Part shown: positions 16,004 to 61,561 of the stretch, in pieces
Position numbering within the stretch: the first letter of the stretch is position 1
Layout: each line of letters starts with the position of its first letter
Position numbers and translations under genes: made by a program
From: an uncultured Rhodospirillales bacterium
GTDB lineage: Bacteria; Pseudomonadota; Alphaproteobacteria; UBA9219; RGZA01
DNA length: 64,000 nt
Assembly (NCBI GenBank): GCA_964568585.1
Contig: CAZMQI010000004.1
Location: forward strand, 11,312-75,311
Reading direction: 5' to 3'
Notes under the pieces: model-generated
What the model was told of the DNA's origin: nothing
The model's database searches: none
The model's input: the letters and a program-made list of their open reading frames with translations, nothing else

Positions 16004-19000
16004 TTGACCGTGAACGCTGCCCGCCCTATCTCAAAAAAATCGACAAAAGAATCCAAATCTGCAGCCGTAAAGGATGCCCCAAAGACCGTGAAGGGCAAGT
16101 CGTCGAACCAGACCGTCGCTGCCTCAAAAACCACAAGCGAAATCAAAAAAGTACTCTCGGCACACATCCCTGCCCGTGACCGTACCCAGTTCCACGATCA
16201 TGATTTATCTGCCATCTCGGAAAGCATGGGTTCATTCATTCACGAACGCAAACGCGGCGTGCCAAAACTGCGCGTCCTAAACCCAACCTTGAAGAAAGAC
16301 GGCTATGTCAGCCGCCACACTGTCATCATGGTTGCCAATGACGACATGCCATTCTTGGTAGACAGCACGACGGGTGAATTGAACCGCATGGGTCTGGGCA
16401 TCCATCTTGTCATTCATCCGGTTGTACACATTGTGCGTAATGAGCGTAATCAATTTGAACATTTTGCGGGTAAGACCACCTCCCCCGATGAGCTCAGCGT
16501 TGAATCATGGATGTACATCGAAATCGATGAAACCCATGAAGCTGCCAAGCTTGCGGAAATCGCCGCGAACCTTGAACGCGTCCTATATAATGTTCGTTTG
16601 GCCGTGCGCGATTGGTCGGGCATGCGTACCAAAATCATGGAAACCATCACCGAATTGCCACGCAATGAAACCGTGGGCCTGCCCGCAGGTGAACGCGAAG
16701 AGACCGCGAACTTCCTTGCATGGCTGGAAGCGGATAATTTCACATTCCTTGGCGCGCGCGATTACCACGTCACGGGCACTGGCAAGAATATGCACCTTGT
16801 TACCACGCCCGGCAGTGGCCTTGGTATCCTCACCGACGCAGTATCCGTCATGTTCTTTGGCGAAGAAGGCGAAGGTAGCCAGCCAACCGACATCCATCAT
16901 TTCCTTGAACGCAAACAGCTTGCGCTCATCACCAAGACCTATAAGCACTCGGTGGTTCACCGCACCACGCCAATGGATGCAGTGCTCATCAAACGCTATA
17001 ACGCCAGCGGCAAATTAATTGGTGAACGGTTGTTCGTCGGCTTGTTTACATCATCGTCGTATAATCGTCTTGCCAAGGATGTTCCGCTCATCCGCGAAAA
17101 GATTTCGTATGCGATTGACCATGCTGGCCTTGATCCGCGCAGCTATAACGGAAAAGTATTCACGCATATTCTCAATTCCTATCCGCGTGATGAATTGTTC
17201 CAAATCTCGGCCGCTGAATTGTTGGAAACCGCAATTGGCATTCTGGATTTACAGGAACGCCAACGCCTTGCGCTATTTATCCGTCATGATGCGTTCGAAC
17301 GTTTTGTGAATTGTTTGATTTATGTGCCACGTGATTTGTACATCACCAAATTGCGTAAGGAATTCCAGCGCATTCTGATGAACACGTTCAAAGGTGCCCA
17401 TAGCGATTATAATGTGAAGATTACCAATGAATCCTTGGCGCAGATCTTCATCGTCGTGCGTACCTCCAAGGGTCAAATCCCTACGTACGACCGCGCCAAA
17501 CTGGAACACGAACTGGAAGATGCAAGCCGCGGCTGGTCTGGCCGTCTTCGCAATGAATTGATTGCAGCCTTTGGTGAAAACCAAGGCTTGAAGCATGCCG
17601 AAAAATACTCGGAAAGCTTCCCGGATGCATATTGCGATACCGTGAATGCACATGAGTCCTTACAAGACTTGGCATTCATTGAAGACGTTCTGCAAAACAA
17701 TGCGCTTGAATTGAATCTGTATCGCCCCAGCAAGGCCACGCAAGAACGCATTCACCTGAAATGGTTCTCCCCTAATGTGCCATTATCCTTATCGCTTATT
17801 CTTCCCATCATGCAGGATATGGGGTTGAAGACCAACGCGGTGCTTGGTCCTTACGAAATCAAACCAGCGGGTTCTGAAAAATCGGTATGGATTCAGGATT
17901 GCCATGCGGAAGTAAAACCCGGCATCCCCATTAATCTGGAACGGGTGAAGGCGAAGTTCGAAGAATGCCTGCTTAAAGTCTGGAACAACGAAGTTGAAGC
18001 GGATGCCTATAACCAGCTTATTTTGCTGGCCGATATGAACTGGCGCGAAGTGGTGATTTTGCGCGCGATTGGCAAATACCTTCGCCAAGCACGCCTGCCC
18101 TATTCCGAACAAGCCATCATCCGCACGCTGTCACAGCATCCTGCGGCGGCACGTCTATTGGCGCAATTGTTTATCGCACGTCATAACCCTGAACTGGGTA
18201 AAGAAGGCGCAAAGCTTTCCGCAAAACTTGAAAAAGACATCGCGGAATATCTCAAAGACGTCAGCATGCTGGAAGAAGACCGCATTCTTCGCCGCATGCA
18301 CAATGTTATTCAAAACACATTGCGTACCAATTATTTCCAAAAAGACGAACAGGGTCAGCCGAAATCCTATCTGTCCTTCAAGCTCGACAGCAAGAAGCTG
18401 GATGGCTTGCCACTGCCGCGTCCGCACGTTGAAATTTTTGTCTATTCCCCTCGTACCGAAGCCATTCACTTACGTGGCGGCAAGGTTGCACGTGGCGGTA
18501 TCCGCTGGTCAGATAGACGCGAAGATTTCCGTACCGAAGTCTTGGGCCTTATGAAGGCACAACAGGTAAAGAACACCGTGATTGTGCCCGTGGGTTCAAA
18601 GGGCGGTTTCGTTGTGAAAAACCCAAAACCCGCCGATATGGCGAAGGAAGGCGTTGCCTGCTATCAGATCATGATGCGCGGCTTGCTCGACATCACCGAT
18701 AACCGCGTTGGCGAAAAGATTGTCCCGCCCAAGAACGTAGTGCGCCATGACGAGGATGATCCATATCTGGTGGTTGCTGCTGATAAAGGCACCGCGAAAT
18801 TCTCCGACATCGCGAATGCGTTATCGATTGAATACGGCTTCTGGCTGGGCGATGCGTTTGCATCGGGCGGTTCGGCTGGTTACGATCATAAAGGCATGGG
18901 TATTACTGCACGTGGCGCATGGGAAGGCATCAAACGCCATTTCCGCGAAATGGGCAAAGACATCCAGAAGGAAGATTTCACCGTCGTCGGCATCGGCGAT

Positions 19001-20938
19001 ATGGCGGGCGACGTGTTCGGCAACGGCATGCTGTTATCGCAGCACATCCGTTTAGTCGGTGCGTTCAACCACAAACACATCTTCATCGACCCATCCCCTG
19101 ACAGTGCGAAATCATTCGTTGAACGCCAACGTCTGTTTGATTTACCCGGCAGCCAATGGAGCGATTACGACAAGAAACTGATTAGCAAGGGCGGCGGCAT
19201 TTATAACCGCGATGCGAAGACCATCCCGCTATCCAAAGAAGCGCGTGATTTATTCAACATCAAGACCGACAGCGTGACCCCAGATGCGCTGATACAGGCG
19301 ATGTTGCAAGCCACCATCGAACTGCTCTATTTCGGCGGTATCGGCACCTATATTAAGGCCGAAGACGAAAACGATGCTGATGTGGGCGATCGTACCAATG
19401 ATGCATGCCGTGTGAATGCCGAAAGCGTTCATGCCCATGTGATTGGCGAAGGCGCGAACCTTGGCATGACCCAAAAGGCGCGTATCGCTTACGCCCTTCG
19501 TGGTGGCCGTTTGAATACCGACGCGATTGATAACTCCGCTGGTGTTGATACATCCGATCATGAAGTGAATATCAAAATCCTGCTGGCCCCCGTTGTGGCA
19601 TCGGGCAAGCTGTCGACCAAATCACGCAACGTATTATTGGCGAAGATGACCGATGATGTTGCTGGCTTGGTCTTACGTGATAATCACCTGCAACCACTTG
19701 CACTTACTGTTACGCAATCACGTGCAGCAGAACTCTTGCCCATCCACGCACGCTTGATGCATGCATTGGAACGCAAAGGGCTGTTGAACCGTAAGGTTGA
19801 ATATCTGCCGAATGATGAAGCCATTCAGGAACGCGCAAGACTTGGTAAGGGTCTCACCCGTCCAGAACTCGCCGTACTCATGGCTTACGCTAAAATCGAT
19901 CTGTACGATGAAATTTTGGCCAGCCAATTGCCGGATAACCCTGCCCTTGAAGATGATTTGTTCATCTATTTCCCCAAAGCGCTGCAAACCGAATACGCAT
20001 CGGCCATCCGCAACCACCGTTTGCGCCGTGAAATCATCGCAACCTTCACCACCAATTCATTGGTGAACCGTGGCGGCACGCATCTTATCCAGATGATGCA
20101 GGAAAAAACCGGCAAATCCCCTGCGGAAATCGCGGGTGCCTATGCCGTGCTGCGTACTGTCTATGGCCTTCGCGTCACATGGAATGAAATCGAGAAGCTG
20201 GAAGGCAAAATCGATAGCAAGACCACGACCGAGCTATATACCCGCCTTGCCAAGATGATTGAACGCGCAACGCCGTGGTATGTAAAACATTCCACCATCG
20301 CCAACAGCCAAGCCTTGATTAAAAAGCATAGCGATGCCGTGGTGACCTTACGTAAATGGATGAGCGCACGCGCCGATGAATTCATCACCCGCGATGAAAA
20401 CGAACAACGCGCTTCCGATTTCCGTAAAGCCGGTGTTCCAGCCAAAATCGTGGATGATATTCTGGGTCTGCCCGTTTTGGCGCATATCCCCGAAATCGTC
20501 AGCCTGTCGGAAAAAACCGGCCGCAGCCTTGAAAGCGTCGCGGAGTTATACTTCGCCGTGGAACAACGCTTCCGCATCTTCTGGCTGCGTACGCAGGCAC
20601 GCGATTTATCATCAGAAAACACATGGCAGCGCGAAGCCGCCACCAATCTGATTGATGATTTGTATGATATGCAATCGGTGCTCACCAACCTTGTGCTGCA
20701 AGCGAACGGCAAAGTTGCCCCAGCAGGCAAAGCTAAAGGTAAGGGCAAGAAGGCATCCCCTACTTCATCCAGCAAGGCGAAGCCCGAACAGCTCATCGAA
20801 CATTGGGCGGAACCAAAGACAGACATTGTGCGCCAATATGGTGTGATGCTTGGCGAAATCGCCGCAACACGTCATGCTGATTTCGCGATGCTGAACCTTG
20901 CGCTGCGTCACCTGCAACAACTTGCTTATAAAGGCTAA
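16004..20938 (+). CDS. NAD-specific glutamate dehydrogenase, large (~180 kDa) type
   Basis: 1644 aa. The central catalytic domain has GDH motifs (IVPVGSKGGF, DKGTAKFSDIAN, GIGDMAGDVFGNGML). Size and architecture match large NAD-GDH. The start is ambiguous (TTG 16004 or GTG 16010). Confidence 0.9.
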   Translation: MTVNAARPISKKSTKESKSAAVKDAPKTVKGKSSNQTVAASKTTSEIKKVLSAHIPARDRTQFHDHDLSAISESMGSFIHERKRGVPKLRVLNPTLKKDGYVSRHTVIMVANDDMPFLVDSTTGELNRMGLGIHLVIHPVVHIVRNERNQFEHFAGKTTSPDELSVESWMYIEIDETHEAAKLAEIAANLERVLYNVRLAVRDWSGMRTKIMETITELPRNETVGLPAGEREETANFLAWLEADNFTFLGARDYHVTGTGKNMHLVTTPGSGLGILTDAVSVMFFGEEGEGSQPTDIHHFLERKQLALITKTYKHSVVHRTTPMDAVLIKRYNASGKLIGERLFVGLFTSSSYNRLAKDVPLIREKISYAIDHAGLDPRSYNGKVFTHILNSYPRDELFQISAAELLETAIGILDLQERQRLALFIRHDAFERFVNCLIYVPRDLYITKLRKEFQRILMNTFKGAHSDYNVKITNESLAQIFIVVRTSKGQIPTYDRAKLEHELEDASRGWSGRLRNELIAAFGENQGLKHAEKYSESFPDAYCDTVNAHESLQDLAFIEDVLQNNALELNLYRPSKATQERIHLKWFSPNVPLSLSLILPIMQDMGLKTNAVLGPYEIKPAGSEKSVWIQDCHAEVKPGIPINLERVKAKFEECLLKVWNNEVEADAYNQLILLADMNWREVVILRAIGKYLRQARLPYSEQAIIRTLSQHPAAARLLAQLFIARHNPELGKEGAKLSAKLEKDIAEYLKDVSMLEEDRILRRMHNVIQNTLRTNYFQKDEQGQPKSYLSFKLDSKKLDGLPLPRPHVEIFVYSPRTEAIHLRGGKVARGGIRWSDRREDFRTEVLGLMKAQQVKNTVIVPVGSKGGFVVKNPKPADMAKEGVACYQIMMRGLLDITDNRVGEKIVPPKNVVRHDEDDPYLVVAADKGTAKFSDIANALSIEYGFWLGDAFASGGSAGYDHKGMGITARGAWEGIKRHFREMGKDIQKEDFTVVGIGDMAGDVFGNGMLLSQHIRLVGAFNHKHIFIDPSPDSAKSFVERQRLFDLPGSQWSDYDKKLISKGGGIYNRDAKTIPLSKEARDLFNIKTDSVTPDALIQAMLQATIELLYFGGIGTYIKAEDENDADVGDRTNDACRVNAESVHAHVIGEGANLGMTQKARIAYALRGGRLNTDAIDNSAGVDTSDHEVNIKILLAPVVASGKLSTKSRNVLLAKMTDDVAGLVLRDNHLQPLALTVTQSRAAELLPIHARLMHALERKGLLNRKVEYLPNDEAIQERARLGKGLTRPELAVLMAYAKIDLYDEILASQLPDNPALEDDLFIYFPKALQTEYASAIRNHRLRREIIATFTTNSLVNRGGTHLIQMMQEKTGKSPAEIAGAYAVLRTVYGLRVTWNEIEKLEGKIDSKTTTELYTRLAKMIERATPWYVKHSTIANSQALIKKHSDAVVTLRKWMSARADEFITRDENEQRASDFRKAGVPAKIVDDILGLPVLAHIPEIVSLSEKTGRSLESVAELYFAVEQRFRIFWLRTQARDLSSENTWQREAATNLIDDLYDMQSVLTNLVLQANGKVAPAGKAKGKGKKASPTSSSKAKPEQLIEHWAEPKTDIVRQYGVMLGEIAATRHADFAMLNLALRHLQQLAYKG

Positions 20939-25370: not shown

Positions 25371-25750
25371 TCACCAGATGGCTGGATGGCCGCCTCTTTC
25401 GCAAGATTGGGGAGGAAAGTCCGGGCTCCATAAGATTATGGTGCTGGCTAACGGCCAGCGGGGGTGACCCCAGGGAAAGTGCAACAGAAAGATACCGCCA
25501 ATTCGCTTCTAAGACGGGGGTTTTGGTAAGGGTGAAATGGTGCGGTAAGAGCGCACCGCGTTTTTAGTGATAAAAACGGCATGGCAAACCCCACCAGGAG
25601 CAAGACCAAATAGGGATGGTTGGCTGATCTTACCATTAACCATCCGGGTAGGTTGCATGACATGCGGAGTAATCCGCATGCTAGATGAATGGCCGTCTTA
25701 ACACAGTAAAACGTGCGACGACAAAACCCGGCTTACAGGCCATCTGGTGA
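25371..25750 (+). ncRNA. rnpB: RNase P RNA, bacterial type A
   Basis: Conserved blocks GGAGGAAAGTCCGGGCTCCATAAG, GGTAAGGGTGAAATGGTGCGGTAAGAGCGCACC and ACAAAACCCGGCTTA (P4 halves). P1 is formed by 5' TCACCAGATGGC and 3' GCCATCTGGTGA. Confidence 0.85.
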
Positions 25751-25833
25751 TATTTTAATAAAGATGAAATCCTATACTTTCAATTCCGCGTGATACATTT
25801 GGATGTCGATTTTAATATTTATCGGGACAAATA

Positions 25834-27597
25834 ATGGTCACCATCGCACAACCAATTGTTGAATTAAAAAGAAGACAACTCGTTGATGCAGTTGCGGCAT
25901 TCAACACGCAAGATGAATTATACAACAATCTGCACCGCAATATTCCTGAGCTTAGAACCACGTTGCAAAGCGCAGAAGCCGCCCTGCTTGCACGAACAAA
26001 CGAAAAAACACCACGCGATGAAGCGGTAACTGCTAAAACACGCGCGCATAGCGAAGCAGAAGCATTAGTACAGCCAGCCGTTGATAAAGAAGCCGAAGAA
26101 AAAACCAAATCCGAAGCGGCTGAAGAAAAACTAAGAGATTTACGTATCGAAATCGGAAGAGCAAATAGCGAATTAGGCGATGCAACCCGCGACCTCGAAG
26201 CGCTCGGTCTTGATATAAGTACTGCCGAAGGATTGCTGACACAAGCAAGACGAAGACTTGAAGAAGTGCGGACCGCAAAAGCAGCATCCGAAGCACGCCT
26301 GCGTGAAGCCGAAGCAAAAGCTGCGTTATCGGCTGCTGCCGCCGCTGCCCCCGCTCCTGATGGTAAAATTGCAAGGTTACGTGCAGCAGCTGCTGCACGC
26401 ATAAAAGGCACACCAGCACAAATCGCAGCCGCCGATGCACTTGCGGTAGAACACGCAAAAGGTGCTAATGCAATTAACCAAGCAACACTTGAAGGCATTG
26501 AAGAGAAAGTAACCCGTGATGACGAAGCACTTAATGATGGTACAACCGGTTTAAAATCGAAACTGCCAGCGGCAGAACAGCTAGTTCGCGAGAAAACAAC
26601 CGCGCATAACGACCTTAAAGGCCAAGAAGCCGGACTAATGCAAGCGGCAACTGAAGCAGCGACAGCATATCAAGAAGCACAAGCAGACACGGGTAGAAAA
26701 AAAGCGGATGCAGAAGCAAAACTAAGACAAAAAGAAGAAGCTGTTCGACAGCAAACTGTTGCAGCACAGGCAATCACTGATGCAACAGAGAAACGCGATA
26801 CAGCGCGACAAAACCTAGACGAAGAAGAAGCAAAGGTTGAGCCCGCAAAACTTGAAAGAGCGCGTTTAAAAGACGCAGCAGAAAAAGCAAAAGCCGCGGT
26901 AGAGCTTGCAATAAATGAAGAAGCCGAGCGTAAAGCTGTTGCAGAGCTGGGCAATATTGTAAGCCTTGCAATCGGCGCCGATAATATGGGCAAAGGGGAT
27001 AGCTTCAACGATCAGCAGATAATAGGGATTGTTAGAATTCTGAATGATCAACTGAAGCGCTCAGGTGCATGGGGTGATACTGTCCATCACACAATTTCAC
27101 ATGATAAAGATAAAATCGTTTTTGATGACCGCATAAAACCCAACAAGCCGGGAACAGTGACAAGAATGATTATTGTTAATCCACGCACCATCGATATCAA
27201 AGGCGATATGGATGACAAAACCATTCAAGCCGCATTAATCGCAGCGAATGCAATGTGGGGTGAACAGGGCATTCAAATCAAAACCATCGACCCATGGTTG
27301 AAGTCACGCCTTCTGGCAAATGCCGACCATTTGCACAAATTGGGCTTAATTAAAAAATACAAAACCAAAACACTGTTTGGAACTGTGGGTGAAGGATTTG
27401 CAAACGCAAAAGGGTTGGTCACTGCACCGCGCGACACATGGCGTTTTGGCACAAAGGGGATCACCTATCGCCATCGTTTGGATTGCCTTGAACACGGTTT
27501 GGAGAGCAACACATTGCGCCCTGTTAAGTGGTACAAACTTGGTGGCATGAAAAACGGTATCAGCGCAGCCGCCCCTGCCCCTGGCAGAACCGCATAA
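25834..27597 (+). CDS. hypothetical protein: ~400-aa Ala/Glu/Lys-rich coiled coil followed by a ~190-aa globular C-terminal domain of unknown function
   Basis: 587-aa ORF. The N-terminal region is heptad-like and low complexity (AEAKAALSAAAAAAPAPDGKIARLRAAAAARIKG). The C-terminal region is non-repetitive (GDSFNDQQIIGIVRILNDQLKRSGAWGDTVHHT...WRFGTKGITYRHRLDCLEHG). The antisense ORFs are A/S/R-rich artefacts. Confidence 0.6.
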   Translation: MVTIAQPIVELKRRQLVDAVAAFNTQDELYNNLHRNIPELRTTLQSAEAALLARTNEKTPRDEAVTAKTRAHSEAEALVQPAVDKEAEEKTKSEAAEEKLRDLRIEIGRANSELGDATRDLEALGLDISTAEGLLTQARRRLEEVRTAKAASEARLREAEAKAALSAAAAAAPAPDGKIARLRAAAAARIKGTPAQIAAADALAVEHAKGANAINQATLEGIEEKVTRDDEALNDGTTGLKSKLPAAEQLVREKTTAHNDLKGQEAGLMQAATEAATAYQEAQADTGRKKADAEAKLRQKEEAVRQQTVAAQAITDATEKRDTARQNLDEEEAKVEPAKLERARLKDAAEKAKAAVELAINEEAERKAVAELGNIVSLAIGADNMGKGDSFNDQQIIGIVRILNDQLKRSGAWGDTVHHTISHDKDKIVFDDRIKPNKPGTVTRMIIVNPRTIDIKGDMDDKTIQAALIAANAMWGEQGIQIKTIDPWLKSRLLANADHLHKLGLIKKYKTKTLFGTVGEGFANAKGLVTAPRDTWRFGTKGITYRHRLDCLEHGLESNTLRPVKWYKLGGMKNGISAAAPAPGRTA

Positions 27598-39382: not shown

Positions 39383-40855
39383 ATGAACACTATTTCGCCG
39401 CTTCATAATAAAACACGCATTCCACTTGCCGTGGGTGCCATCCATTTCGTGGGCATTGGCGGCATTGGCATGAGCGGTATTGCCGAAATCCTCCACCATC
39501 TTGGCTACACCGTGCAAGGCAGCGATGCGGCGGAGAATGCGAACGTCAAACGCCTGCGTGAACGTGGCATCAAGATATGGACAACCCATGACGCATCCCA
39601 TTTGGGCGATGCAACGGTTGTCGTCATTTCATCTGCGATTAAAAAAGATAATGCCGAACTGATTGCTGCGCGCGAAAAACATATTCCAATTGTACGCCGC
39701 GCCGAAATGCTTGGCGAGCTCATGCGTCTTAAATGGGCGATTGCAATTGGTGGCACGCACGGAAAAACGACCACGACATCACTGGTTGGCGCGATGCTGG
39801 AAACCGCACAGATGGATCCCACCGTCATTAATGGCGGCATCATCAACGCCTATGGCACCAATGCGCGGCTTGGCGATGGCGAATGGATGGTGGTTGAAAG
39901 CGATGAATCCGATGGCTCATTCACCAAGCTGCCAGCAACCGTTGCGGTTGTGACCAATATCGATCCGGAGCATATGGAGCATTACGGCACGTTCGATGCT
40001 GTGCGGAAGGCGTATGATACATTCGTAAGCAATATTCCCTTCTATGGCTTTGCGGTGTTGTGTACTGACCACCCGGAAGTTCAGGCGATGATCCCGCGTG
40101 TGTCAGACCGCCGATTAATAACCTATGGAACCAATGCACAGGCGGATATACGCGCCAGCAATATCGAAACTGGCGCTTTTGGCGCACGGTTCGATGTTGT
40201 CTTTACTGACCCGAAAACTGGAACTTCGGAAACCGTAAGTGCAATCGATTTGCCGATGTATGGGCATCATAATATTTTGAATGCACTGGCATCTATCGCT
40301 GTTGGACGTGCATTGGGCATTGCAACGCCGGTAATGCGCGAAGCGTTGGCGAAGTTCAGCGGTGTGAAACGCCGCTTTACCAAAATCGGCACGGTCAATG
40401 GTATCACCATCATTGATGATTACGGCCACCACCCTGTTGAAATCTCCGCTGTGCTATCCGCAGCACAAAGCGCACGCGGTGGCCAAGGCCGCACCATTGC
40501 CGTGGTGCAGCCGCACCGCTACACACGCTTGCAATCATTGTTCAATGAATTCTGCACCTGCTTTAATGAAGCGGATATTGTGATTGTCGCTGATGTATAT
40601 GCCGCAGGCGAACAACCGATTGAAGGCGCAAGCCGTGATGCGTTAGTTGAAGGTCTTCGTACCCACGGCCACCGTCATGTGCATGCCCTTAGCTCACCTG
40701 AAGCACTACCCACACTCATCGCCGAGCTCGCCTCCCCCGATGATCTGGTTGTATGTCTGGGTGCTGGCAATATCACCAGCTGGGCGCAGCAATTGCCCCA
40801 AGCATTGGAAGAACACTATAATCAAGCGCCGAAGAAGACGGCATCCGCCACATGA
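39383..40855 (+). CDS. murC: UDP-N-acetylmuramate--L-alanine ligase
   Basis: [17 protein letters not shown]-terminus and P-loop [11 protein letters not shown]. The ORF track starts at a TTG one codon upstream (39380); ATG 39383 is preferred. Confidence 0.9.
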
Positions 40856-41757
40856 GTTTGGTTCTGCCAGAAGTGCGCGGCGCATATATCAAGGATGCGC
40901 CATTAAAGGACAGCACATGGTTCAAGGTTGGCGGCAATGCGGAAGTATTATTCAAACCAGCTGATGAAGAAGACCTATCGCAGTTTTTAAAACATGTTTC
41001 GCCGGAAATTCCTGTCACTATATTGGGATTAGCATCCAACGTCATTGTACGCGATGGCGGGATTGATGGCGTTGTCATCCGCATGGGTGCGGAGTTTAAA
41101 AAGATTGCAATCGATGGCGACATCATTACCGCTGGCGCAGCCGCTGTGGATTTAATGGTGGCCAAGGCAGCAGAGAAAGCAAGTCTGACCGGACTTGAAT
41201 TCATGAGCGGTATTCCGGGCAGCGTTGGCGGCGGATTGTTCATGAATGCTGGTGCCTATGGCAGCGAATTCAAGGACGTGGTGATTGATGCACGGTTGAT
41301 GGACGAAAAGGGTAATATAAAAACCCTTTCCAATGATGAGCTTGGCTTTACATACCGCCATTCCAATACGCCAGACCGACACATTTTCCTTTCTGCGCGG
41401 TTTCAAACCAAACCCGGGGATGCCACGGCCATAGCGGCAAAGATGGCTGAAATCCAAAGCAGCCGCCAAGGCAGCCAGCCTATTCGCAGCTACACGGGTG
41501 GTTCGACCTTTGCGAACCCACCCTTAGATATTTCTGGGGGTAAGAAAGCATGGCAGCTCATCGATGCGGCGGGTTGCCGCGGGTTAAGAATTGGCGGTGC
41601 GGAAGTATCGAATCAGCACTGCAATTTTTTAATAAACACGGGCGATGCTAACGCGCATGATTTAGAATTGCTCGGTGAAACGGTACGTGAACGCGTGGCG
41701 GGGCACAGCGGCATTGAATTGCGCTGGGAAATAAAACGATTAGGAAAAGAAGGATGA
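40852..41757 (+). CDS. murB: UDP-N-acetylenolpyruvoylglucosamine reductase
   Basis: FAD-binding domain ([10 protein letters not shown]...[14 protein letters not shown]) and C-terminal MurB domain. 4-bp overlap with murC. Confidence 0.9.
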
Positions 41758-42023
41758 GGGTGTGTCATCAATTATAGCGTGGAGTATTGTTTCAAAATAA
41801 AAGTAATATGCTAGGAAGCAAGCGCAGCTGTAGTATTGCTACAGCAAGTGAAGGTGACAACGCAGATTGCTTTTATTTTGAAACCCTAAAGGGCGCGGCA
41901 GAAAAACGCCCCGACTACTTCAGAAAGCTTGGCCGTAGCACCACTACGACCATCGCTTTCTTCATAGTCGGATACGCTTTTCTGCTACGTGCAATACCCA
42001 CGTTATAATTGAGGACACACCCC
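41758..42023. repeat. ~265-bp element with ~31-bp imperfect terminal inverted repeats filling the murB-ddl gap (MITE-like or large structured RNA)
   Basis: The left end GGTGTGTCATCAATTATAGCGTGGAGTATTG (41758..41789) pairs with the reverse complement of the right end CAATACCCACGTTATAATTGAGGACACACC (41992..42021), with only about 3 mismatches. Internal hairpins GCTGTAG-N5-CTACAGC and GGGCG-N11-CGCCC. Confidence 0.55.
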
Positions 42024-42024
42024 T

Positions 42025-42966
42025 ATGACCATTACGCCCAAAAAAATTGCTGTCCTGCTGGGTGGCTGGTCGGCTGAGCGCGAAGTATCGCTGACCGGTG
42101 GCGCATTAATCGTTGAAGCGTTGAAAAGCCTTGGCCACCAAGTTAGTGCGATTGATGTGCAACGCGATCTGGTTGGATTATTGCAATCGATTTTACAACA
42201 CCCGATGGGTAAGCCTGATGTCATCTTCAACGCACTGCACGGGCGCGGCGGCGAAGATGGGTGTATTCAAGGCGTTCTGGAATTTCTTGGCATTCCCTAT
42301 ACCCATTCCGGCGTTTTATGCTCCGCAATGTGTATGGATAAGCCGACCGCCAAAAAAATCGTATCGTCCTTTGGCGTGCGCTGCCCCGAGGGCAAGGTGA
42401 TGACGCGTGACGAAATTTTAAAAAACGGATTTCCATTCGAAGCACCGTTTGTCATCAAACCCACCAATGAAGGTTCCAGCGTTGGCGTGCATATCGTACG
42501 CAAAGGCGAGAATTTCGATATTGCAAGAGAAGGCTGGGTTTACGGCCATGAAGTATTGGTGGAACGCTATATCCCTGGCCGCGAATTGACCGTTGGATTA
42601 CTTGGCGGCAAGGCAATGATGGTAACCGAAATCAAATTCACCGCAGATTTTTATGATTACACCGTGAAATATACTGCTGGCCATTCAACGCATGATTGCC
42701 CTGCACATATTCCGCTTGCCGTTGAAAAGGAAGCGATGCGTATGGCCGAAGTTGCCTATGCCGCGCTTGGATGCAATGGCGCGGCACGTATCGATTTGCG
42801 TTTTGATGAAAGCCGCAAAGAATCCGAAAGCCTGTACTTCCTTGAAATGAATAATCAGCCGGGCTTTACGCCCATGTCGCTTGTTCCGGAACAAGCAGCT
42901 GCAAAGGGCATGCCTTACGCACAATTGTGTCAGTGGATCATCGACCATCCTATCCAACCAGATTAA
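42025..42966 (+). CDS. ddl: D-alanine--D-alanine ligase
   Basis: 313 aa, ATP-grasp fold. N-terminus KIAVLLGGWSAEREVSL, then GEDGCIQGVLEFLGIPYTHSG. Confidence 0.9.
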   Translation: MTITPKKIAVLLGGWSAEREVSLTGGALIVEALKSLGHQVSAIDVQRDLVGLLQSILQHPMGKPDVIFNALHGRGGEDGCIQGVLEFLGIPYTHSGVLCSAMCMDKPTAKKIVSSFGVRCPEGKVMTRDEILKNGFPFEAPFVIKPTNEGSSVGVHIVRKGENFDIAREGWVYGHEVLVERYIPGRELTVGLLGGKAMMVTEIKFTADFYDYTVKYTAGHSTHDCPAHIPLAVEKEAMRMAEVAYAALGCNGAARIDLRFDESRKESESLYFLEMNNQPGFTPMSLVPEQAAAKGMPYAQLCQWIIDHPIQPD

Positions 42967-45116: not shown

Positions 45117-45437
45117 TTAAATTGTCATATTGAGGGTGATGCCTACGGCGTTCGCGCCGCGTCCATCCGCTTTCAAACTGCGTTTAATCTCGTCCGCGAT
45201 TTGTTGTTCAACCTTTTTCTGCTCGTCGGGCAGCATGGCCTTTAAGCTTTCTTCGGTCATGTTATGGGCGCGCAGATATTTGTAGCGGATTTTGTCGGCT
45301 ACCGACATCTGGGAATATTTTACCAGTTCCTCGGCAGGGTTGGCCTTGTCCGCCGCGCTTTTGGCAAGGGCGGAAGTACTGGTTTTACCCGTATAATAGC
45401 TACCGGCGTTAGTAATGCCTGATATTGCACTGGTCAT
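45117..45437 (-). CDS. hypothetical small protein encoded antisense in the ftsA-ftsZ intergenic region
   Basis: Non-repetitive, protein-like ORF. An internal ATG (the codon ending at 45437) is preceded by a perfect GGAGG Shine-Dalgarno with a 5-nt spacer, giving a 106-aa product (MTSAISGITNAGSYY...). The ORF-track start at 45449 is 4 codons upstream. Confidence 0.55.
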   Translation of the reverse strand: MTSAISGITNAGSYYTGKTSTSALAKSAADKANPAEELVKYSQMSVADKIRYKYLRAHNMTEESLKAMLPDEQKKVEQQIADEIKRSLKADGRGANAVGITLNMTI

Positions 45438-61476: not shown

Positions 61477-61561
61477 GCGGTCGTGGCGGAATTGGTAGAC
61501 GCGCAGCGTTGAGGTCGCTGTAGGGCAACCTGTGAAAGTTCGAGTCTTTTCGACCGCACCA
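61477..61561 (+). tRNA. tRNA-Leu (anticodon GAG), class II with long variable arm, CCA encoded
   Basis: Acceptor stem GCGGTCG/CGACCGC, D-arm GGCGGAATTGGTAGACGC, anticodon loop TTGAGGT, long variable arm GTAGGGCAACCTGTG, T-arm AGTTCGAGTCT, 3' ACCA. Confidence 0.85.

Follow-up and report, generated by a model that had tools for sequence, protein, structure and literature searches.

What fills the junction between murB and ddl in the dcw cluster of an uncultured alphaproteobacterium? In the 64-kb stretch of DNA analysed here (the window), the gene order of this cluster is canonical: murC, murB, ddl, ftsQ, ftsA, ftsZ. Both neighbours of the junction lie on the forward strand, murB (UDP-N-acetylmuramate dehydrogenase; NCBIfam NF010480, E 3.3e-118) at 40852..41757 and ddl (D-alanine--D-alanine ligase; NCBIfam NF002378, E 2.6e-107) at 42025..42966. 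The TGA stop codon of murB (41755-41757) and the ATG of ddl (from 42025) are separated by 267 nt (41758-42024). An initial annotation described this gap as one unit bounded by inverted repeats, and proposed either a miniature inverted-repeat transposable element (MITE) or a structured RNA of the operon, such as an attenuator or a small RNA (sRNA). The first proposal is the better answer. The element is very probably a MITE: a 265-bp non-coding, non-autonomous DNA transposon of an undescribed family, inserted at the murB/ddl junction. Three kinds of evidence carry this reading: the orthologous junctions are empty, further copies with the same ends occur at unrelated loci, and the ends are of the type found in IS1301 and the IS5 family of insertion sequences (IS), with TA flanks. 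It is a new sequence family of an already known kind, in an uncultured alphaproteobacterial clade.

Repeat search and folding agree that the gap is occupied by a single unit (41758-42022, 265 nt), which the murB TGA abuts on the left without an intervening base. The inverted-repeat arms at 41758-41782 and 41998-42022 (25 nt) are 92% complementary, and pairing extends over about 31-33 nt with one indel (41758-41788 against 41993-42022/24), so that terminal inverted repeats of about 31 nt, as first described, are indeed present. The left repeat (41758..41788) reads GGGTGTGTCATCAATTATAGCGTGGAGTATT, with GGGCGTGTCCTCAATT as the family consensus of its outer 16 nt, while the right repeat (41993..42022) reads CAATACCCACGTTATAATTGAGGACACACC(C). 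With up to three mismatches allowed, a 24-nt end pattern is found at these two places only in the 64-kb window, where none is expected (100 shuffles). The two internal hairpins that had been noticed were both recovered. Module A (41789..41884) is a long hairpin with an outer stem at 41789-41811/41862-41884 (23 nt, 91%), an apical hairpin at 41823-41833/41839-41850 and conserved unpaired internal loops. Module B (about 41893..41992), again a long hairpin, has homology to module A when the latter is reverse-complemented (local score 26, against 12.9 +/- 1.9 in shuffles, with a maximum of 20). Therefore, this two-module form is an imperfect dyad of 265 bp: end, module A, linker, inverted A-like module, end. 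The linker at the dyad centre (41885..41892, CCTAAAGG) is the best-conserved part in the alignment of the copies. The G+C content of the element is 45%, and that of the window 50%. The unit has no coding capacity: a 73-amino-acid open reading frame (ORF) belongs to no family, the frames are not conserved between copies and no protein homologue was found; a search of a protein collection with a translated 76-amino-acid frame gave no candidate, although such short ORFs are probably not stored there. No second comparable object was found in the window.

The junction was compared with related dcw loci reached through Ddl homologues of 87-97% identity. Contiguous murB and ddl genes, as the initial annotation had expected, are the rule: orthologous junctions in five related lineages overlap or are 1-18 nt apart, all without the element, which is missing from each of the six dcw loci reached in this way. 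The spacer is 1 nt in the closest of these (L018, Ddl 97%), where the junction reads GGATAACATGACC (...GAAGGA TAA C ATG ACC...). It is 16 nt in L013, L014 and L015 (Ddl 90%) and 18 nt in L020 (Ddl 88%), and the genes share an ATGA overlap in L016 and L017 (Ddl 89%) and in L019 (Ddl 87%). Otherwise these relatives are collinear with the window over the C-terminus of MurB and the N-terminus of Ddl; the MurB end ...RLGKEG* is the same in L018, and the Ddl start MTITPKKIAVLLGG is kept. Since the junctions of the relatives are empty, the 265 bp were gained in the lineage of the window, and judging from the sequences this gain is recent on the scale of 3% Ddl divergence. A second empty site is provided by a copy that lies directly after a 5-formyltetrahydrofolate cyclo-ligase gene (L007). 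Here the filled site ...CAGGGT TA|GGGCGTG... can be set against ...CAAGGC TAA AACACC... in L022, which has a 72% identical cyclo-ligase. The insertion lies in the stop codon, at its TA, and the first G of the element restores a stop (TAG).

This second copy is one of a dispersed family. A scan with the exact 21-nt end pattern GTGTCNTCAATTATANCGTGG covered about 185,000 species genomes, and the same pattern was used on metagenomes of the Joint Genome Institute (JGI). The species genomes yielded two complete elements, both in the metagenome-assembled genome (MAG) 'Alphaproteobacteria bacterium WBA_2_308': a two-module copy directly upstream of hisI (L008, 5369-5634), and the one-module copy of about 165 nt after the cyclo-ligase gene (L007, 1287-1446). 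The JGI metagenomes added a two-module copy with a degenerate left end between pth and the next gene (L010), the same locus as L007 (L011) and a partial copy (L012). In total the family is known from five unrelated loci and at least three sources, in two size classes, about 165 nt with one module and about 265 nt with two. A single long hairpin makes up the one-module form, which may represent an ancestral half-unit. Copies are located in or beside stop codons, and two of the five are opposite in orientation to the neighbouring gene. Three other records (L005, L006 and L009) were rejected as copies, each being a single chance match to the end pattern. No match with the whole element was found in the plasmid or phage collections, and none with the end pattern in viral contigs. 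Within the window there is no further copy by end pattern, blastn-short, sensitive blastn or an nhmmer profile built from three copies, and this profile found none in the related dcw loci or in the 7.6 kb upstream of the window. Furthermore, the diagnostic sequences of the family are absent from the searchable literature.

The copy between pth and its neighbour appears to be older. In L010 (663-700) the pth frame runs three codons into the degenerate left end (…LPRV*), and in the inferred empty site, CCTAATGATTGA, pth would overlap the ATG of the next gene by 8 nt. On this reconstruction, a junction of coupled genes would have received an insertion in L010 as well.

By what kind of enzyme could such an element be moved? 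Read inward, the ends follow the consensus TA|GGG(C/T)GTGTC(A/C)TCAATTATA(A/G)CGTGG, and TA flanks seven of the nine readable termini. It is present on both sides of the copies in L008 and L010 and at the copy in L012, and on one side only of the copy in L007 and of the window copy (TGA...TA). In the window, the TA at the right end (42024..42025) is the presumed target duplication, and its A is at the same time the A of the ddl start codon. A search of a plasmid collection with a 36-nt end sequence gave three matches with E = 4, not significant alone, and each of the three coincides exactly with the terminus of an element of 843 bp whose annotation is IS5-like, IS1301 family, in Moraxella osloensis (pMOXF1; L026, 1503-2345) and Acinetobacter baumannii (pE47_001; L027, 1503-2345). 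The left end of this IS, TA|GGGCGTGTCCTCAATTTAAC, and the MITE end, TA|GGGCGTGTCCTCAATTATAAC, are in the same register and share 16 identical nt (18 with the TA), or 21 of 22 with one indel. The IS itself is flanked by TA, within GCTAG and ACTAG. The interiors of the two elements are unrelated, as an nhmmer search matches the termini only.

IS1301 reportedly inserts at 5'-AYTAG-3' with duplication of the TA (PMC2193550), and the targets inferred for the MITE (CTTAT, CCTAA, GTTAG and GATAA) fit this site only loosely. IS5 elements of the IS427 group, which are common in Alphaproteobacteria, are about 830-865 bp long there; they give 2-bp repeats, and their left end has a partial site for integration host factor, ATCAA (PMC3281130). 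A possible site of this kind, again only partial, is seen in the MITE end as CATCAATTAT. That the 16 nt are shared across such different hosts suggests a widely conserved end motif in the IS1301-type group. Because of its IS-type ends and TA flanks, the MITE would be recognised by a DDE transposase of the IS1301/IS427 type, and on this sequence evidence it was probably moved by such an IS5-family transposase in trans; no transposase or other mobility gene was found next to the copies. Transposition would have proceeded by cut-and-paste with duplication of the TA target, and the element would have landed in the junction of the murB stop and the ddl start after the split from the closest sampled relatives.

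The folding potential of the element is considerable. The predicted fold is Y-shaped, consisting of the paired ends and two arms, with a folding energy of -131.1 kcal/mol for the + strand (z -14.4) and -133.8 kcal/mol for the - strand (z -13.7), and none of 200 shuffles is as stable. Both strands therefore fold equally well. Among the three full copies, 18 of 102 predicted pairs show double changes that keep the pair. Column shuffles give 7.2 +/- 2.1 such pairs and never reached 18 in 500 trials, and sliding the stem partners against each other leaves 0-3. In module A, for which four copies can be compared, compensatory changes are found in 11 of 32 pairs, and the internal loops TAGGAAGCAAG and AAGNTGACAAC stay nearly constant while the stems covary. 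GTAG...CTAC occurs in each of the two apical hairpins. From the paired changes, the hairpins are being maintained and are not decaying. This maintenance could result from a function of the RNA, from selection on transposing master copies, which could for example favour insertions that fold out harmlessly, or from hairpin-templated correction in DNA palindromes.

How can an insertion at this place be tolerated? On the operon strand, neither an intrinsic terminator nor a sigma-70-type promoter was found in the element, although each end contains a TATAAT box without a usable -35. In the absence of a terminator, the element should be transcribed with the dcw operon, and once this happens the long-range stem probably affects the expression of ddl. 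In the empty site of L018, the sequence GAAGGA stands 6 nt before the ddl ATG. In the window it is found in the last murB codons (41749..41754, + strand; GAAAAGAAGGATAACATGACC gives the comparison of both junctions), 270 nt upstream of the ATG in linear distance, and it appears to be the ancestral Shine-Dalgarno sequence of ddl. A candidate replacement is supplied by the element itself: GAGGA in the right inverted repeat (42011..42015, + strand), 9 nt before the ddl ATG and paired in the outer stem. In all three copies that abut a start codon (the window copy at ddl, L008 at hisI and L010), GAGGA precedes the ATG by 8-9 nt, and the stretch that begins with it and runs to the start codon reads GAGGACACGCCCTATG in L008 and GAGGACACGCCCTAATG in L010. 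Of the five other readable ends, four show GATGA or GACGA there.

In the predicted fold the outer stem runs from one base past the UGA of murB to two bases short of the AUG of ddl, and even the stop and start codons are drawn in, as U41755-A42025 and G41756-U42024 are predicted to pair. The paired ends would loop out the 265 nt and set the UGA of murB against the AUG of ddl, as in the ancestral junction, while GAGGA would be sequestered in the stem until this is opened. In a partition-function model, the mean probability that GAGGA is unpaired is 0.23; it rises to 0.56 and 0.88 when 12 and 15 nt after the stop, respectively, are held single-stranded. A ribosome terminating at the murB stop could therefore melt the first 12-15 bp of the stem and free both GAGGA and the AUG, so that the original translational coupling of murB and ddl would be kept. 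Ribosome-opened coupling across a looped-out MITE is, on these models, the most likely mode of ddl translation. In a variant with a split ribosome-binding site, the stem may instead return the old GAAGGA to a position next to the AUG. The duplex of about 30 bp would also be a plausible substrate of RNase III. Looping-out, the supplied Shine-Dalgarno sequence and coupling would together explain why the insertion is tolerated in an essential operon.

Several observations weigh against this account of a mobile MITE and its accommodation. The roughly 72 kb of the source genome that could be searched (the window and L028) hold one copy only, and the family is rare, the end pattern being found in one of about 185,000 species genomes and in three metagenome contigs. 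The duplication at the window copy is not intact, with the murB stop TGA as left flank and TA as right flank, and two further small changes are needed to derive the filled site from the empty site of L018. The matching IS comes from Gammaproteobacteria (Moraxellaceae) and shares only the outer 16-21 nt; a matching transposase gene was found neither in the vicinity of a copy nor in an alphaproteobacterium. The association of GAGGA with start codons (three ends against five) is suggestive and not significant (hypergeometric p of about 0.07). Finally, G.U and A.C mismatches in the inner helices are about equally frequent (approximately 6 and 5). This lack of a strand bias is uninformative on whether RNA or DNA structure is conserved, and selection at the RNA level is therefore not demonstrated.

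With respect to copy number, short-read (Logan) contigs give a hint. In three runs, contigs with an identical murB end at 41909 or 41912, while those with an identical ddl start at 41902, so that the two sets overlap by 8-11 nt only. The breaks fall just to the right of the linker, in the most conserved, central part of the element, which would follow from the behaviour of a k-mer assembler at a repeat shared with other copies. They hint at more copies in the same samples; a drop of coverage at the hairpin is an alternative cause of the breaks.

Among the rival explanations, the one that survives best does not dispute the origin of the element. The MITE could have been exapted, its fold being selected now at the level of the RNA because it regulates ddl and other genes downstream, whether through processing by RNase III or through a structure that gates the access of ribosomes. 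We consider this unlikely. It would account for the covarying stems and conserved internal loops, for the GAGGA at every end that abuts a start codon, and for a fold in which the Shine-Dalgarno sequence and the AUG are sequestered and stop and start codons are base-paired. There is also a precedent in the Correia elements, which RNase III cuts at their inverted repeats (PMC10969869). However, the insertion is young, being missing from the relative with a 97% identical Ddl, and two of the five copies are turned against their neighbouring gene. Furthermore, the equal folding of both strands and the unbiased wobble pairs give no preference to the RNA, and covariation in a DNA palindrome can arise as well from hairpin-templated repair or from selection on master copies.

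A more far-reaching version, which we regard as somewhat less probable still, holds that the whole family is a mobile, self-folding RNA cassette, with hairpins under selection, that could insert between translationally coupled genes, fold itself out of the mRNA and so keep or conditionally gate their coupling. If this were true, a stop codon (TA+G) would come with one of the ends and a Shine-Dalgarno sequence with the other, and gating could operate, for example, via RNase III or temperature-dependent melting. The supply of Ddl to the essential cell-wall pathway would then be under the control of the element.

Very improbable is a hairpin-dependent element that moves as a single strand, such as a repetitive extragenic palindrome (REP/BIME, mobilised by RAYT), a palindrome-associated element of the IS200/IS605 type or an attC-like site. 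The nested hairpins with covarying stems and conserved unpaired bases, and the GTAG...CTAC motif in both apical hairpins, are reminiscent of such systems. In REPs, however, GTAG precedes the stem and does not lie inside it, and IS200/IS605 and REP elements are not known to have long terminal inverted repeats of the sort seen here. The 31-nt inverted ends with TA flanks, 16 nt of which are identical to a DDE-type IS5-family end, argue for another mechanism, as does the size of the unit, 265 bp rather than the 20-40 nt of a palindromic unit in REP/BIME. Around the copies, no gene for RAYT, TnpA-Y1 or an integrase was seen. The IS-type TA ends also fit none of retron msr/msd, IS110 bridge RNA and integron attC, which were set aside for this reason and because no reverse transcriptase, recombinase or integrase is adjacent.

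Even less can be said for the second proposal of the initial annotation, widened here to any regulatory RNA acting in cis that is specific to the murB-ddl junction, be it an attenuator, a riboswitch or an sRNA. In its favour is the structure itself, which is very stable and covarying, lies within an operon and overlaps the ribosome-binding site of ddl. This proposal is contradicted by the absence of the element from all orthologous junctions examined, including those of the closest relatives (L013-L020), and by its presence elsewhere, at the hisI, pth and 5-formyltetrahydrofolate cyclo-ligase loci. In Rfam nothing reaches the gathering threshold, and what matches at E <= 10 (mir-3338 with 20 bits, a hepatitis C virus stem-loop) is noise; a terminator is lacking too, and the TA flanks and IS-like ends speak against a locus-specific RNA. 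We therefore give it hardly any weight. The weakest explanation, an assembly artefact in which two half-elements were joined by chimerism or collapse and no 265-bp unit exists at the locus, could appeal to the lack of a Logan contig across the centre of the element, but it is scarcely credible, because the join of module A, linker and module B is contiguous in two independent assemblies (the NCBI MAG record L008 and the JGI record L010), both element halves at murB-ddl are reproduced base for base in three runs (at the starts of L001 and L002 and the ends of L003 and L004), and the position of the breaks is, by inference, the one expected of a de Bruijn assembler at a shared repeat.

The MITE can be placed among known systems at two levels. 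By its ends it is linked to the IS1301/IS427 group, as the left end of the 843-bp IS1301-family element likewise reads TA|GGGCGTGTCCTCAATT and TA flanks occur in both. It differs from this group by the lack of a transposase gene, its length (265 bp against about 840 bp) and its unrelated interior. The logic of this assignment is that used for RUP of Streptococcus pneumoniae, which was tied to IS630-Spn1 by end similarity and TA insertion (PMC2229807), although RUP is 107 bp long and the element described here is tied to an IS5-family end. Functionally, it resembles the Correia elements of Neisseria (CREE/NEMIS), which are also small and non-autonomous, with size variants. These have inverted ends of about 26 nt, are co-transcribed with their neighbours, form RNA hairpins that are cut by RNase III and alter the expression of adjacent genes (PMC2229807, PMC2649163, PMC10969869). 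The resemblance is functional only, since host clade and size are different, and the present element has two nested hairpin modules and no detected promoter.

A closer parallel in position is Chunjie of Geobacter uraniireducens, a MITE of about 235 bp that, in the words cited from Chen et al. [quoted passage not shown] Like the murB-ddl element it is found between operon genes and has size variants. Chunjie differs in family, ends and host, and a single genome holds about 38 full and 57 partial copies of it. The ERIC/IRU sequences of Yersinia and other enterobacteria, imperfectly palindromic and located between genes in transcribed DNA, alter the stability of the flanking mRNA through the structure of their RNA (PMC10969869). 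They have not been shown to be bounded by IS-type TA ends, and neither sequence nor host is related. What distinguishes the element from known MITEs is its two-module dyad with covarying hairpins and its position exactly between the stop and the start of two essential genes.

The interest of the locus resides in a mobile element that occupies the tightest junction of an essential operon without breaking the operon. One end, TA+G, can regenerate a stop codon, the other carries a ribosome-binding site, and the pairing of both would fold the insert out of the message, so that nature offers here a compact system in which to test translational coupling across a large RNA structure. With it, an uncultured alphaproteobacterial clade gains a MITE family linked to IS5/IS1301. 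Annotators should be aware that a long structured unit between operon genes is more probably a MITE than a riboswitch, and that such units fragment short-read assemblies. No general principle is changed, as operon MITEs that act by RNA structure have already been documented (Correia, ERIC, Chunjie).

The dcw clusters of the related loci contain other repeats. A different palindromic repeat fills the 196-nt gap between ftsQ and ftsA in L020 (4925-5075; ...ATGCCCTCTAACATCCGTCATGCCCGCGAAGGCGGGCATCC ... GAATGCCCGCCTTCGCGGGCATGAC), and a fragment related to it, CATGCCCTCTGAACGTCATGCCC, is found in the enlarged ddl-ftsQ gap of L019 (3541-3585). The dcw junctions of this clade seem to be repeatedly colonised by small palindromic elements.

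With respect to the host, the closest named relatives of Ddl belong to the Azospirillaceae (56-59% identity), and FtsZ has an alpha-type C-terminal extension, in agreement with an alphaproteobacterium. In the 550-nt gap between ftsA and ftsZ, an antisense ORF of 106 amino acids (45117-45437, - strand) has no Pfam match. A similar ORF of 106-112 amino acids is present at the same place in L001, L013, L015 and L018, and none was called in L016. This could be a genuine small gene, or else a spurious yet conserved ORF that covers the promoter region of ftsZ. Elsewhere in the window, on the + strand, lie a gene for an NAD-specific glutamate dehydrogenase of 1644 amino acids (16004-20938), a single tRNA (61477-61558) and a class A RNase P RNA (25374-25751, 322 bits), directly downstream of which is a 587-amino-acid ORF (25834-27597) with no Pfam match at E <= 0.01.

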